Shown: piece after piece, positions 4,925 through 63,725 of the stretch
How positions within the stretch are numbered: the first letter of the stretch is position 1
Layout of the letters: each line of letters starts with the position of its first letter
Source: Nitrososphaerota archaeon
GTDB taxonomy: Archaea > Thermoproteota > Nitrososphaeria > Nitrososphaerales > JACQRY01
Assembly: GCA_016184315.1 (NCBI GenBank)
Contig: JACPCU010000014.1
Coordinates: forward strand, 64,724 to 128,723
DNA: 64,000 nt
Direction: 5' to 3'
Translations under genes and position numbers: made by a program
Notes under the pieces: generated by a model
What the model was told of the DNA's origin: nothing
The model's input: the letters and a program-made list of their open reading frames with translations, nothing else
Database searches by the model: none

Positions 4925-5035
4925 GAGCCACCACTTCGGGGAAAACTAGTCAGGAATCATTAGTTATCCAGCATCAACACGACAAAACAAGTGAGAAGAT
5001 TAATATGTGCATATACATATGTAGAAAGAGGTCTG

Positions 5036-5260
5036 ATGTCTAGAACGATAGCGATATCAGACGAAGCCTACAAGTTGCTCAAGAGGTCGAAGCTTCCGGG
5101 TGAAAGCTTCTCGTCGGTCATAACGCGTAGCTTGCGAAAGGGAAAGCTTTCAGAGATAGTTGGTAGTGGCACCATAAGCAGGGCTGATTGGGAAGATGCG
5201 ATGGAGAGCCTCTTGACGGCTGAGGCCATAAGTTCAAAGAAGCTGAGAGGGGTCTCTTGA
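5036..5260 (+). CDS. vapB: VapB-type antitoxin (archaeal 'putative antitoxin' family, PF02697-like)
   Basis: From ATG 5036: MSRTIAISDEAYKLLKRSKLPGESFSSVITRSL. This is the typical signature of that family. A PIN start lies 1 nt after the stop. Confidence 0.65.
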   Translation: MSRTIAISDEAYKLLKRSKLPGESFSSVITRSLRKGKLSEIVGSGTISRADWEDAMESLLTAEAISSKKLRGVS

Positions 5261-5261
5261 G

Positions 5262-5468
5262 TTGTATCTGTTTGACACAACTTTCGTCGTGGATCTGGTG
5301 AATTCTGATTCTGGTGCAGTTGAATTCGCGAAGAGAGTAGACTGGGACGTCTCTCTGGTTGCCATATCGGCGATTTCGGTTCACGAGTACATGTTTGGAG
5401 TCTACTATAGATATGGCAAAGATGGAGATGATCTATTTCCCTCTGAGAGCGCCGTATTGCGTGGGTAA
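5262..5468 (+). pseudogene. vapC: PIN (vapC) N-terminal half only
   Basis: MYLFDTTFVVDLVNSDSGAVEF...ISAISVHEY stops after 68 aa. The missing C-terminal half is replaced by the 3' end of a convergent PIN gene, with overlap at 5433-5468. Confidence 0.55.
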
Positions 5469-5855
5469 GACTACTCTTATTGAGTTGACGCGTTTGAATT
5501 GTCGGTCATTGGTAATAAAAGAGTCCGCTCGCTCGATCAACGATGTCGCAACATGGATGGCGTCATAGCCGCCAATTCTGTACTTCCCCACTATTTCGTC
5601 AGCAAGCATTAGGACGTCTGAATTCGCATCTACGAATTTGATGGGAAGAGAGTAGATCAATTCAAGAGCTATCTTTGATTTGGAAGGTTCGATACTCGCG
5701 ACCACGCTCATAATTTCGATAGGCACAAGAGTCGAGACGACGGCCTGTAGTTTTCCTGTTTCCACATCGTCAATTATGTGCTTACTTTGCCTGCCAGATT
5801 GGGGATGAGCAAAGACTGAGTAGATGAAAATGTTAGTGTCAATGTAGGCTTTCAG
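5433..5855 (-). CDS. vapC: PIN-domain toxin VapC
   Basis: The reading frame is open to 5858. Upstream of the track's Met it reads (L)KAYIDTNIFIYSVFAHPQ..., which includes the essential N-terminal Asp. The C-terminus reads GGYDAIHVATSLIERADSFITNDRQF. No ATG/GTG/TTG precedes the Asp motif, so the only candidate start is CTG at 5855-5853. Confidence 0.7.
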   Translation of the reverse strand: MKAYIDTNIFIYSVFAHPQSGRQSKHIIDDVETGKLQAVVSTLVPIEIMSVVASIEPSKSKIALELIYSLPIKFVDANSDVLMLADEIVGKYRIGGYDAIHVATSLIERADSFITNDRQFKRVNSIRVVLPTQYGALRGK

Positions 5856-6099
5856 CTCTCATCTTCTCCGCCCTTTTCTTTCTGACTCTACGGACTTCTT
5901 TTACTGCGTCTCTGGATGAAGGGACAAGCCCGAAGAGCTTCTCAGAAGGGTTTATGATCTTCTTGGGAGGTTCAACAACGATCATTCCAGCGTCATATCT
6001 CCATGTGAGCGTATCCCCAACCGATATGCCTGTGGTTTCTCTTATCTTCCTTGGGACAACTGTTTGCCACTTCTTCATCACTTTGCTCTTGGCCCTCAT
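5839..6099 (-). CDS. vapB: AbrB/SpoVT-family antitoxin
   Basis: 86 aa with WQTVVPRKIRETTGISVGDTL. It overlaps the PIN gene downstream. Confidence 0.8.
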   Translation of the reverse strand: MRAKSKVMKKWQTVVPRKIRETTGISVGDTLTWRYDAGMIVVEPPKKIINPSEKLFGLVPSSRDAVKEVRRVRKKRAEKMRAESLH

Positions 6100-60584: not shown

Positions 60585-61376
60585 GTGAAGACAGGTTTGA
60601 AGAACAGGTGGCTGCTGCTCGTGGGTCTATTCTCTATCCTACTGCTAGTCGCCTCACCTACAGCTGCATACGCTAGTCCTTTCACCGGTAGGAAGAGCGT
60701 TGAGTCTTCTTCCACGCAGTTTCTGATAGAGTCTCCGAGTGGTGGCGGAGCGGTGTGGAGTCAGGTCGTCTTGAAGGTCCTCATAGATCCGAATGTGTAT
60801 TCGCCGAGTTCCATAGAAGTGTCGGCGGGGCGTCGAGGCATAGATAGCTGGAAGACGTACATAACGTGGTTCTCGGTGAAAGATTGGGATGGAAACGGTG
60901 CCCCAGATCATCCTTGGCTCGACCGTTTGAGCTTCATAGTTTATGTGATGGGTGTAAACGAGAGTCTTCTAGCAGGGACTGCGGACATAACAGTAACATA
61001 CTATTCTCAGATATCGCCGAGATCAGCATTGGGCTACGCGAGTTTGGACTACAAGAGAGTCGGCGGACAGTATGCGATAAGTTATGTCGAAATAGCTTTA
61101 GCTGTGAGGGGGCTCAGCACTGTGGGCATACAGAATGTTGCGGCACACGAGTTCGGCCACGCGTTGGGCTTGGGTCACAGCAACAAGAGAGGTGATCTGA
61201 TGTACCCTGCTTTTGATGCGAGTACGGAGAATAGGCTTGTTGTGCTGCCCTCAACGCTTAATCTTTACGCGCTTGCCTTGACATACGGGTGGCTTTCTTC
61301 GGGTGTCTTCTCAGAATATCGCGGCCGGTTGTCGGTAACCCTGCCGCCGAGCCATATTGCCGCAGCGTACAGATGA
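60585..61376 (+). CDS. Secreted metzincin (matrixin-like) zinc protease
   Basis: It has a signal peptide (LLLVGLFSILLLVASPTAAYA) and HEFGHALGLGHS (HExxHxxGxxH). The start is GTG. Confidence 0.75.
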   Translation: MKTGLKNRWLLLVGLFSILLLVASPTAAYASPFTGRKSVESSSTQFLIESPSGGGAVWSQVVLKVLIDPNVYSPSSIEVSAGRRGIDSWKTYITWFSVKDWDGNGAPDHPWLDRLSFIVYVMGVNESLLAGTADITVTYYSQISPRSALGYASLDYKRVGGQYAISYVEIALAVRGLSTVGIQNVAAHEFGHALGLGHSNKRGDLMYPAFDASTENRLVVLPSTLNLYALALTYGWLSSGVFSEYRGRLSVTLPPSHIAAAYR

Positions 61377-61494
61377 TTGGACCCCGAGTTTCAGGTCTTC
61401 ACATAGGAATCGTCAGAGAGCCGTGGTAGCAACAATTGCCACGACGAAATATCGCAGAGGACATAAATAGCTAGATCTACGCTTGCGAACTCAA

Positions 61495-61911
61495 ATGAGC
61501 GAAAACTACTCTTTACCTGTGAACGAGAAGGCCTATGACACTTTGGCGAAGGCAAGAAAAACAGGAGAGAATTTCTCCGATGTCATCATGCGTCTGGCTT
61601 CTACGAAGCTAGTAGGTCTTCAGAAGCGAGGAGAACAGGTCATCACAAGTTCAGATGGAAAGAAGATCAGCATCAAGATCGAGCAGGACCTGTGCTTTGG
61701 AGCCGAGAGCTGTGTTAACTTGGCACCCATGGTTTTCGCTCTTGATGTGAGTCACTTGGGCTTCGGTCGAAAAGGTTCTGAGCCTCTGGGCATGATGGAT
61801 GTCCCGGAGGGTTCGGTTACAAGTGAAACAGTTGTTTTGGCGGCGCGTTCATGTCCCTATCGAGCCATAATTGTGAAGGATGTAGAGTCAGGGGAGCAGT
61901 TGTCTCCGTAG
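61495..61911 (+). CDS. Fusion of a VapB-type (PF02697-like) antitoxin domain and a single-cluster ferredoxin domain
   Basis: The N-terminus reads YSLPVNEKAYDTLAKARKTGENFSDVIMRL (compare the 5036 antitoxin). The C-terminus reads KIEQDLCFGAESCVNLAPMVF...AARSCPYRAI, a ferredoxin pattern with three Cys. An alternative TTG start is at 61483. Confidence 0.6.
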   Translation: MSENYSLPVNEKAYDTLAKARKTGENFSDVIMRLASTKLVGLQKRGEQVITSSDGKKISIKIEQDLCFGAESCVNLAPMVFALDVSHLGFGRKGSEPLGMMDVPEGSVTSETVVLAARSCPYRAIIVKDVESGEQLSP

Positions 61912-62008: not shown

Positions 62009-62965
62009 TTAGAGGCTTGTTTTCATCGGTCTTTTCTCGTATTCTAGTAGTTCTTTTAGTCCTTCGCGGATGGAGTAGTGGGGCTCGTAGTTGAAGTCTT
62101 GTCTTGCGGCGGAGATGTCGAAGACGCCTCCTTCCATAGTTTGGGGGAGGTTTTTGGCTGTGGTGGAGACTTCTCTTCCGGCTTTTATCTGGGCTCCGGG
62201 GATAAGTTCTTGGACTGTGTCTACGAGCTCTCCTATTGTGGTTGCTCCGGAGTTTATGTTGTAGAAGAGGCTGCTGGTCTTGCCGGTTTTGCTGGCTAGG
62301 AAATGGGCTCTGGCTGCGTCTTTGACGTATGTGGTGTACATGGTTGTACTGCGGTCGTATGGTAGGGCTGCTGGTTGTCCTCTTAGGGGTTTGCCTAGGG
62401 CTTCGTCGGTTATTCCGCTGATGCCTGTTCTCTGGCCGGGTCCGTAGATGAGTCTCAGTCTGAGTCCGTTGATTACTAGGCCGTATTTGCTGGTGTATGT
62501 TTCGCAGTAGCCTTCGCTTGCGAGTTTGGTTATTCCGTAGAAGCTGTTTGGTCTCCTAGGATAGTCTTCTTTGATTAGGGCGTCGTCTTGGGTGGGGCCG
62601 TAGACGCTGGAGGTGCTTGTGTAAACCATTTTCTCTATGTCGGTCAGCCTGCAGGCTTCAAGGACGTTCACTGTGCCTAGGAAGTTTACTTTGGCTGCGG
62701 CTACGGGTCTGTTGTTGGATTCCTTGGTGAGGAGGGAGGCTGTTTGGATGATTTTCTTTACGTTGTTGTCTTTGATGGCCTGCGCTATCTCAGCTAGGTT
62801 CAGCATGTCTCCTTTGACGTGTTTGACTTTGTCGGCTGCTTCTCCCAGGATAGTCTTCGGGGGAGGAGCTAGGTCGAAGACGATGGGTGTTTCGCCGCTG
62901 TGAAGTATTTCTAACGCGATGTGGGCGCCTACGTTGCCCGAGCCACCGATAATCATGGTGCTCAT
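62009..62965 (-). CDS. NAD-dependent epimerase/dehydratase (extended SDR)
   Basis: 318 aa with IIGGSGNVGAHI (GxxGxxG) and YGITKLASE (YxxxK). Confidence 0.9.
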   Translation of the reverse strand: MSTMIIGGSGNVGAHIALEILHSGETPIVFDLAPPPKTILGEAADKVKHVKGDMLNLAEIAQAIKDNNVKKIIQTASLLTKESNNRPVAAAKVNFLGTVNVLEACRLTDIEKMVYTSTSSVYGPTQDDALIKEDYPRRPNSFYGITKLASEGYCETYTSKYGLVINGLRLRLIYGPGQRTGISGITDEALGKPLRGQPAALPYDRSTTMYTTYVKDAARAHFLASKTGKTSSLFYNINSGATTIGELVDTVQELIPGAQIKAGREVSTTAKNLPQTMEGGVFDISAARQDFNYEPHYSIREGLKELLEYEKRPMKTSL

Positions 62966-63176: not shown

Positions 63177-63725
63177 TTAGAGTGTTTCTTCGGTTGCTTC
63201 TTCATAGATTTTTAGGTCATAGGGAGAGAAGAGGGTGAAGACGACTTCCCGCAGGCTACTTTCTTTGTGCAGGAATTCCGTGACTGTCTTCAAGGCTACT
63301 CGGCTGGCCTTTTCAATAGGGTATCCGTATGCTCCTGTGCTGATCGAAGGAAAAGATATGCTCTTCAGGTCTTTGGAGGCTGCTAGGCTGAGCGAGTTGC
63401 GATAGCAATCTGCTAGGAGGTTTGGTTCGCCGTGGTTTCCGCCTCTCCATACGGGTCCAACGGTGTGGATTACGTGTCTGGCCTTCAGTTTGCCTCCTGT
63501 GGTTATGACTGCTTTCCCTGTTGGTAGTCCGCTAGGCCATTCTGTTTTTCGTATCTTCTTGCATTCTTCATGTATCTTGGGTCCGCCTCGGCGGTGTATG
63601 GCTCCGTCCACTCCTCCTCCGCCCATTAGGCTTGAGTTAGCCGCGTTCACTACTGCGTCTGTTTCCTGATCGGTTATGTCTCCTTGGATAATACTGATCT
63701 TTGTTTGGCCTAGTATTCTTTCCAT
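63177..63725 (-). CDS. Macro-domain protein (ADP-ribose/O-acetyl-ADP-ribose hydrolase, Af1521/YmdB-like)
   Basis: 182 aa with DITDQETDAVVNAANSSLMGGGGVDGAIH and ISTGAYGYP. Confidence 0.9.
   Translation of the reverse strand: MERILGQTKISIIQGDITDQETDAVVNAANSSLMGGGGVDGAIHRRGGPKIHEECKKIRKTEWPSGLPTGKAVITTGGKLKARHVIHTVGPVWRGGNHGEPNLLADCYRNSLSLAASKDLKSISFPSISTGAYGYPIEKASRVALKTVTEFLHKESSLREVVFTLFSPYDLKIYEEATEETL

Follow-up and report, generated by a model that had tools for sequence, protein, structure and literature searches.

A gene in a 64,000-nucleotide stretch of DNA from a Nitrososphaerota archaeon (GenBank assembly GCA_016184315.1, contig JACPCU010000014.1, positions 64,724 to 128,723 of the forward strand; hereafter, the window) codes for a protein that joins the DNA-binding head of a VapB-type antitoxin to a ferredoxin domain with three cysteines. 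The N-terminal ribbon-helix-helix (RHH) domain has kept its DNA-contact features, the toxin-binding part of the antitoxin has been lost, and both domains are conserved in a family of related proteins. Based on these properties, we tentatively read the fusion protein as an RHH regulator whose DNA binding would be set by its iron-sulfur (Fe-S) domain. We infer the cluster type, the dimerization, the DNA binding and the coupling between the domains, and we rate this reading, taken as a whole, somewhat below an even chance.

The open reading frame (ORF) lies on the plus strand and extends from either a TTG at 61483 or an ATG at 61495 to position 61911, according to the ORF list of the window. The initial annotation of this DNA had placed it at 61483–61911; the ORF itself proved to be real, but its start probably has to be moved. 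Because the homologues align from Met-Ser-Glu at ATG 61495 and not from TTG 61483, the ATG is the likely start codon, which results in a coding sequence of 61495–61911 including the stop codon and a product of 138 amino acids. A chance ORF can be dismissed, since a protein collection clustered at 90% identity contains 25 homologous clusters of 52–77% identity, nearly all of the same length and carrying both Pfam families.

The N-Terminal RHH Domain

Residues 1–42 (61495–61620, plus strand) are homologous to the RHH head of the COG1753/PF02697 (DUF217) VapB antitoxins, as seen from profile searches, an AlphaFold2 model and structural matches. COG1753 has been described as an archaea-specific, predicted RHH antitoxin family of PIN toxins (Makarova et al. 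2009, PMC2701414). The domain consists of a would-be β-strand (residues 5–10), a helix (11–20), a G-E-N-F-S turn and a second helix (27–42), and the same succession of strand, helix, G-E-x-F-S turn and helix makes up the homologous N-terminal 40 or so residues of these partners of the PIN-domain VapC toxins. PF02697 (VAPB_antitox) matched residues 9–41 of the fusion protein with its positions 5–37 of 69 (E = 1.6e-4), giving a whole-protein score of 22.8 bits, which is below the Pfam threshold of 27.9 bits. The match recurred in all 23 full-length family members (best E = 7.3e-10), and the two homologues without it are N-terminally truncated fragments. When a profile built from the N-termini of the fusion proteins was aligned by hhalign with the genome's four canonical VapB proteins, one of which is encoded at 5033–5257 of the window, the probability was 97.5% (E = 8.4e-12, 34 columns). 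In a tblastn search, the N-terminus was 42% identical over 33 amino acids to a VapB encoded on contig C2 (E = 3e-5). The kinship with VapB antitoxins, initially proposed from the letters alone, was thus confirmed by profile methods.

The AlphaFold2 model of the fusion protein reached a mean predicted local distance difference test score (pLDDT) of 77.7 and shows an extended N-terminus followed by helices at residues 11–20 and 27–42, with low confidence at the linker (38–43) and in a loop of the second domain (89–94). Comparing residues 1–45 of the model to all PDB representatives by VIA-align retrieved about 20 solved RHH domains with Z values of 4.5–5.3, which are modest in absolute terms, yet the matches span the whole 45-residue domain and belong to one fold throughout. 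The best were the RHH domains of PutA (2rbf, Z 5.3, 43 of 44 residues) and NikR (1q5v, Z 5.2, root-mean-square deviation (rmsd) 1.8 over 44 residues), followed by TraM, Rv0298, TacA, ParD2, Arc, SvtR, AmrZ and ArtA; the structures of PutA, AmrZ and ArtA are DNA-bound. A sequence search of the PDB with the N-terminal profile gave nothing significant, the best relevant row being the RHH region of MatP at E = 0.47. Prediction of a homodimer from two copies with the family alignment scored 0.19 versus a mark of 0.42, which we take as evidence neither for dimerization nor against it.

As far as is known, RHH domains are almost always DNA-binding, and the typical features of DNA contact are conserved in the fusion family. 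In the alignment of the full-length members, residues L17, A20, E25, S28, V30, R33 and L34 of the RHH core are invariant, basic residues are kept at positions 12, 16, 19, 21 and 22, and strand positions 6 and 10 are occupied by small polar residues. Of these, S28, which opens helix 2, the basic residues of helix 1 and the small polar strand residues are the features expected to touch DNA.

The homology to VapB ends where the toxin-binding part of the antitoxin would begin. PF02697 positions 38–69 remain unmatched, and residue 42 is followed by a linker and the ferredoxin domain instead. VapB is reported to bind its toxin via the C-terminal tail (PMC10127717). The fusion gene is flanked in the window by genes for an M10-like zincin (60585–61376, plus strand) and an NAD-dependent epimerase (62009–62965, minus strand), with a macro-domain protein gene beyond the latter (63177–63725, minus strand), none of them a toxin gene. 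No PIN domain was found in any scanned neighboring ORF, including the directly adjacent ORFs at eight of ten related loci, which agrees with the early remark that no toxin gene adjoins the fusion. Because the toxin-binding tail is gone and no toxin partner is present, we do not regard the protein as a working antitoxin, and neutralization of a PIN toxin by it appears unlikely. Further differences from the canonical VapB proteins are the vertical conservation of the fusion, as opposed to mobility, and its score below the Pfam threshold.

The Linker and the Ferredoxin Domain

The two domains are connected by a G-L-Q-K/R-R-G-E motif (residues 41–47; 61615–61635, plus strand) that emerged from the family alignment. 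Among the 23 full-length sequences, L42, R45 and G46 are invariant, while G41, Q43 and E47 are nearly so, and no other stretch of the N-terminal half is as well conserved (mean column entropy 0.31). The motif is specific for the fusion family and does not occur in the alignment of canonical VapB proteins.

Residues 55–130 (61657–61884, plus strand) form a single-cluster ferredoxin domain, as indicated by PF13459, profile matches to the PDB and VIA-align. PF13459 (Fer4_15) was matched end to end (1–66 of 66) with 29.3 bits, well over its threshold of 22.4 bits, and all 25 family members matched it as well. The first cluster-binding segment reads C67-x-G69-A70-x-S72-C73 (61693–61713, plus strand), with a TGC codon for C67 at 61693–61695, GCC for Ala70 at 61702–61704 and TGT for C73 at 61711–61713. 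The third ligand, C120, is followed by P121 (TGT CCC, 61852–61857, plus strand) within an invariant S-C-P-Y motif. C67, G69, S72, C73, C120 and P121 are invariant in all 25 sequences, and A70 occupies the position of the second cysteine of a CxxCxxC motif in all but one of them. The initial description of a three-cysteine ferredoxin with alanine in place of the fourth ligand therefore holds. No other conserved Cys, His or Asp is placed to provide a fourth ligand in the 25 homologues, and the domain is accordingly predicted to hold a [3Fe-4S] cluster, as in the known CxxXxxC...CP ferredoxins. The domain further contains a family-specific loop of about 15 residues that ends in an invariant E-P-L-G-M (residues 96–100).

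A profile search of the PDB with this domain retrieved the [3Fe-4S] ferredoxin of Rhodopseudomonas palustris (4id8, E = 1.5e-6) as well as 1dax (ferredoxin I of Desulfovibrio africanus) and 1siz (ferredoxin of Pyrococcus furiosus). By VIA-align, the domain matched Mycobacterium tuberculosis Fdx (8amp, Z 8.4, rmsd 2.0 over 64 residues), 4ov1 (Z 8.0) and 1iqz (Z 6.9). Foldseek returned no PDB match of the model at E ≤ 1e-3; the target-normalized TM-scores for the ferredoxin domain were 0.72–0.82. Model confidence was high over residues 101–138 (pLDDT 86–93). The fusion domain thus shares its fold (Z 8.0–8.4, rmsd 2.0 over 63–64 residues) and the Cys-x2-X-x2-Cys...Cys-Pro pattern with a non-cysteine residue at X with the [3Fe-4S] ferredoxins 8AMP, 4ID8/4OV1 (HaPuxC) and 1SIZ. 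Whereas those are free-standing proteins of 60–70 amino acids, several of them partners of P450 enzymes, the fusion protein carries the additional loop of about 15 residues and a DNA-binding-type module.

Distribution of the Fusion and Its Membrane-Anchored Paralogue

The fusion represents a small conserved family of non-ammonia-oxidizing Thaumarchaeota from soil and groundwater. A hidden Markov model search of 1.84 billion representatives at 50% identity gave 656 relatives of the ferredoxin domain, and only six of these reached E ≤ 1e-30, from which we conclude that the fusion family is small. The ESM Atlas contains two clusters named "hypothetical protein" with 79 and 92 members, all from Nitrososphaerota. 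Ten further loci with the complete fusion (L001–L010) were found among the GTDB species genomes, originating from metagenome-assembled genomes (MAGs) of Thaumarchaeota or Nitrososphaerales or from MAGs labelled as Bathyarchaeota or "bacterium"; the L001 orthologue is 77% identical to the protein of the window.

The next relatives of the ferredoxin domain are 36–45% identical over residues 55–138 or so only, and they carry one or two predicted N-terminal transmembrane helices and no RHH domain. These membrane-anchored paralogues, the closest relatives of the fusion's ferredoxin domain, share with it the motifs C-M/L-G-x-x-S-C, P-L in the loop, A-A-x-S-C-P-Y-x-A-I and the C-terminal T-G-E..F-P, and differ in having membrane helices where the fusion has its RHH domain. 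In a sample of 300 genomes of the class, whose tallies include three unpublished genomes (G132, G231 and G283) on which none of the individual claims depends, the ferredoxin domain was present in 175 of 180 and 38 of 39 genomes of two large ammonia-oxidizer families, and the full-length fusion was found in the genome of the window and two genomes of a third family only. AmoA was detected in representatives of three ammonia-oxidizer families, namely the two large ones and one that lacks this ferredoxin domain, and was not found in the window's genome or seven other fusion-bearing genomes examined. Because none of the fusion-bearing genomes examined yielded AmoA, the fusion marks the non-ammonia-oxidizing lineages sampled. 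Fusion and membrane-anchored paralogue occur together in 6 of the 11 fusion genomes, and the fusion is duplicated in two of these 11; the co-occurrence means that the fusion is no simple replacement of the membrane form.

Two MAGs (G304 and G303) carry a second, diverged fusion paralogue (L052:3969-4364 and L053:4286-4681, both on the minus strand) with a shorter loop (…L-G-R-E-P-L-G-M) and, in its upstream region, no full copy of the promoter palindrome described below. The membrane-anchored ferredoxin itself (loci L011–L038 and L040, e.g., L013:5809-6246 and L017:5962-6327; CxGxxSC...SCPY) is near-universal in ammonia oxidizers and apparently uncharacterized. Its gene neighborhood reflects lineage synteny only (citrate synthase and thermosome genes), and in Nitrosopumilales it is divergent to the citrate synthase gene.

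Promoter Region and a Shared Palindrome

A TATA-like box (ATAAATA, 61463–61469, plus strand) ends 26 nucleotides before the ATG of the fusion gene, and most upstream regions of the orthologues contain T/A-rich boxes at comparable positions. This spacing suggests that the gene is transcribed from a promoter of its own into an mRNA that is leaderless or nearly so. At four related loci (L001, L006, L008 and L010), the TATA box of the fusion gene is preceded at a distance of 10–15 bp by the palindrome cGATTCTCA-N4-TGAGAATCg (sites at L008:5831-5921, L010:5843-5929, L006:5911-5928 and L001:5939-5956), and the proximal half-site is kept in L003 and L052. Comparing the upstream regions, we located the degenerate counterpart of the window at 61433–61454 (CAATTGCCA-cgac-GAAATATCG), which matches 7 of 9 and 5 of 9 positions of the two L006 arms by manual count and is probably not functional.

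Allowing one mismatch, we counted 61, 22, 8, 7 and 6 palindrome sites in five fusion genomes, compared to 0–1 for a reversed control. Genes for USP, CBS, Hsp20, FAD-oxidoreductase and adenylate cyclase lie next to such sites, which often stand just upstream of the gene starts. The genome of the window contains four sites on contig C33 (G000:C33:13210-17040; L046:3211-7041), near FAD-oxidoreductase, Hsp20, USP and CBS genes; the nearest ones precede the starts of the Hsp20 and FAD-oxidoreductase genes by approximately 60–130 bp or lie between a divergent pair of CBS genes. Two fusion-bearing genomes, G306 and G310, lack the palindrome entirely. We considered it as an autoregulatory site of the fusion protein and rejected this, since it occurs in up to 61 copies per genome, is missing in G306 and G310 and precedes CBS and cyclase genes in the fusion-less genome G166. 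Being distributed genome-wide and also in a genome without the fusion, the palindrome most likely serves as the binding site of a different factor, for which the recurring HTH_10 and HTH_20 genes are candidates. In several Nitrososphaerales MAGs it resembles the operator of an uncharacterized stress regulon, and in some lineages the fusion gene itself belongs to this putative regulon.

The genes around the fusion in related genomes often have sensory or stress functions (USP, CBS, HTH_10, HTH_20, hemerythrin, PAS, adenylate cyclase, ZIP and Amt). The only ones to recur are USP, CBS, HTH_10 and HTH_20, at three loci each.

Possible Functions of the Fusion Protein

In the regulator that we propose, the toxin-binding tail of an ancestral VapB antitoxin would have been replaced by the three-cysteine ferredoxin domain, yielding a soluble, probably dimeric protein. 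Two RHH heads would pair into a two-stranded sheet and read an operator, with the Fe-S domains attached to them via the G-L-Q-K/R-R-G-E linker. The redox state of the cluster, or its presence or absence, might then alter the geometry of the heads or the oligomerization, and transcription would respond to redox, oxygen or iron status. The initial annotation had already raised the possibility of a redox-gated regulator. We favor it because RHH heads, as far as we know, almost always bind DNA and the contact features are conserved, because the order of domains copies that of NikR and PutA with an N-terminal RHH domain and a C-terminal effector domain, and because conservation within the N-terminal half is highest in the linker and the fusion coexists with the membrane form. 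The missing toxin partner, the apparent promoter of its own, the sensory and stress genes in the vicinity and the palindrome shared with USP, CBS and Hsp20 genes were counted in the same direction.

NikR (1Q5V) and PutA (2RBF) likewise carry an RHH head in front of an effector domain that binds a cofactor; this effector is an ACT-like nickel site in NikR, a flavoenzyme in PutA and a ferredoxin in the fusion protein. The RHH folds match without sequence homology beyond the fold, and DNA binding and coupling in the fusion protein are proposed by analogy. Whether PutA binds DNA or associates with the membrane depends on the redox state of its cofactor. With the Fe-S regulators SoxR, FNR, IscR/NsrR/RsrR, the WhiB-like proteins and ArnR, the fusion protein would share only the principle that the state of the cluster sets DNA binding, since these are built on helix-turn-helix or other folds and have cysteine motifs of their own. 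Searches of Pfam and NCBIfam gave no match of the fusion protein to the FNR, SoxR, Rrf2 or WhiB families at E ≤ 1. We know of no Fe-S transcription factor with an RHH head or a classical ferredoxin domain, and no description of a regulator combining RHH/CopG with an Fe-S or ferredoxin domain was found in full-text searches or in a survey of archaeal fusion proteins. The view that no such protein had been described therefore stands as far as the literature is concerned, but the architecture is not unique to this DNA, as it occurs in the 25 clusters, one of which has been automatically named "ferredoxin/predicted CopG family antitoxin". As far as we found, the protein thus combines two well-known modules in an undescribed architecture that parallels known regulators.

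Several observations weigh against a regulatory role. Position 8 of the strand, which faces outward, differs among orthologues, as do the N-terminal residues. No operator private to the fusion gene could be derived from 13 promoters, and there is no conserved neighborhood of the gene across the 11 loci. Exact copies of the palindrome occur in the AmoA-positive genome G166, which has neither the fusion nor a homologue of the ferredoxin domain, one of them between cyclase and CBS genes. On the side of the cluster, the solved structures closest to the ferredoxin domain are those of plain electron carriers (M. tuberculosis Fdx, R. palustris HaPuxC and P. furiosus ferredoxin), and [3Fe-4S] clusters are usually stable carriers and not labile sensors. 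Moreover, the signature motifs of the domain (P-L in the loop, S-C-P-Y and the C-terminal T-G-E..P) are kept in the membrane-anchored proteins of ammonia oxidizers, which points to a conserved redox partner rather than to a sensory role.

These observations lead to the main alternative, which we consider rather unlikely: an ordinary electron-transfer ferredoxin in which a domesticated RHH domain merely dimerizes or docks the carrier without any regulatory DNA binding. The nearest sequences and structures are indeed [3Fe-4S] and [4Fe-4S] electron carriers (4id8, 8amp and 4ov1), the occurrence of the same domain in membrane-anchored proteins at 36–45% identity makes the N-terminal module look exchangeable, both the invariant E-P-L-G-M loop and the conserved tail at the C-terminus resemble surfaces that bind a partner, and the failure to identify a private operator fits as well. 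The conserved DNA-contact features of a domain that almost always binds DNA argue against such a carrier, as do the co-occurrence with the membrane form in 6 of 11 genomes and the lack of any conserved oxidoreductase neighbor at the loci scanned. A role as redox partner of a P450 was discarded, because the genome of the window, which is 92% complete, yielded no P450. Together with the fact that the fusion carries the sole Fer4_15 domain of this genome, this leaves the protein with no obvious job as an electron carrier.

It is improbable that the three cysteines hold a structural metal site or that the protein serves as a nucleoid-tethered carrier or store of Fe-S clusters. The low number of cysteines and the low model confidence of the loop at 89–94 and the linker at 38–43 would be compatible with this, whereas the CxxAxxC...CP spacing, the fold and the profile match above threshold are those of true [3Fe-4S] and [4Fe-4S] ferredoxins, and three-cysteine sites with Ala, His or Asp in the fourth position are known [3Fe-4S] binders according to the titles of 4id8 and 1siz. 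Finally, the kinship of the N-terminal domain and the presence of four canonical PF02697 VapB genes and several PIN genes in the genome might suggest an antitoxin that still neutralizes a distant PIN or RelE toxin in a redox- or oxygen-dependent manner via its Fe-S domain, but with only profile positions 5–37 of 69 retained, no toxin gene next to it at the eight loci with scanned adjacent ORFs and a vertically conserved, single-copy or duplicated gene amid housekeeping and stress genes, unlike mobile toxin-antitoxin modules, this is highly improbable.

If the proposed RHH regulator with its Fe-S domain were confirmed, it would provide a new sensor architecture for the Thaumarchaeota, for which almost no redox, oxygen or iron regulators have been characterized, and would clearly exemplify how part of a toxin-antitoxin system came to serve in a regulator. 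It would also aid the study of stress responses in the uncultured heterotrophic relatives of ammonia oxidizers. Going further, the protein may be the first Fe-S transcription factor with an RHH head, in which an exapted VapB head and the [3Fe-4S] ferredoxin of the phylum would read the redox state of the electron chain at the promoters of stress genes, a scenario that we regard as possible but on balance doubtful. Even as a mere carrier, the exchange of a membrane anchor for an RHH domain on one and the same ferredoxin domain would separate the sampled ammonia-oxidizing and non-oxidizing lineages. The palindrome of the putative stress regulon represents a concrete cis-element for work on archaeal transcription.

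Additional Observations on Toxin-Antitoxin and Neighboring Genes

Two of the four canonical PF02697 VapB genes of the genome are followed by PIN ORFs. The PIN ORF behind the VapB gene at 5033–5257 (5262–5468, plus strand) codes for just 68 amino acids, and Pfam PIN matches no more than the N-terminal part of the product (E = 0.011). This ORF is overlapped by a longer, convergent PIN-like ORF (5433–5765, minus strand), which has its own AbrB-type antitoxin at 5839–6099. Because this first PIN ORF is short and overlapped, the VapC partner of the VapB at 5033–5257 looks truncated. The canonical PF02697 VapB nearest to the fusion N-terminus is encoded at G000:C2:2093-2347 (L051:394-648); no PIN-like ORF is visible beside it, and the 1 kb downstream contains only low-complexity frames rich in Pro, Thr and Lys.

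The gene upstream of the fusion in the window, that of the M10-like zincin, codes for a protein of 263 amino acids with a signal-peptide-like N-terminus and the zincin motif HExxHxxGxxH. Its match to Pfam Peptidase_M10 (E = 2.5e-10) covers the C-terminal part only, and the predicted product is probably a secreted metalloprotease.

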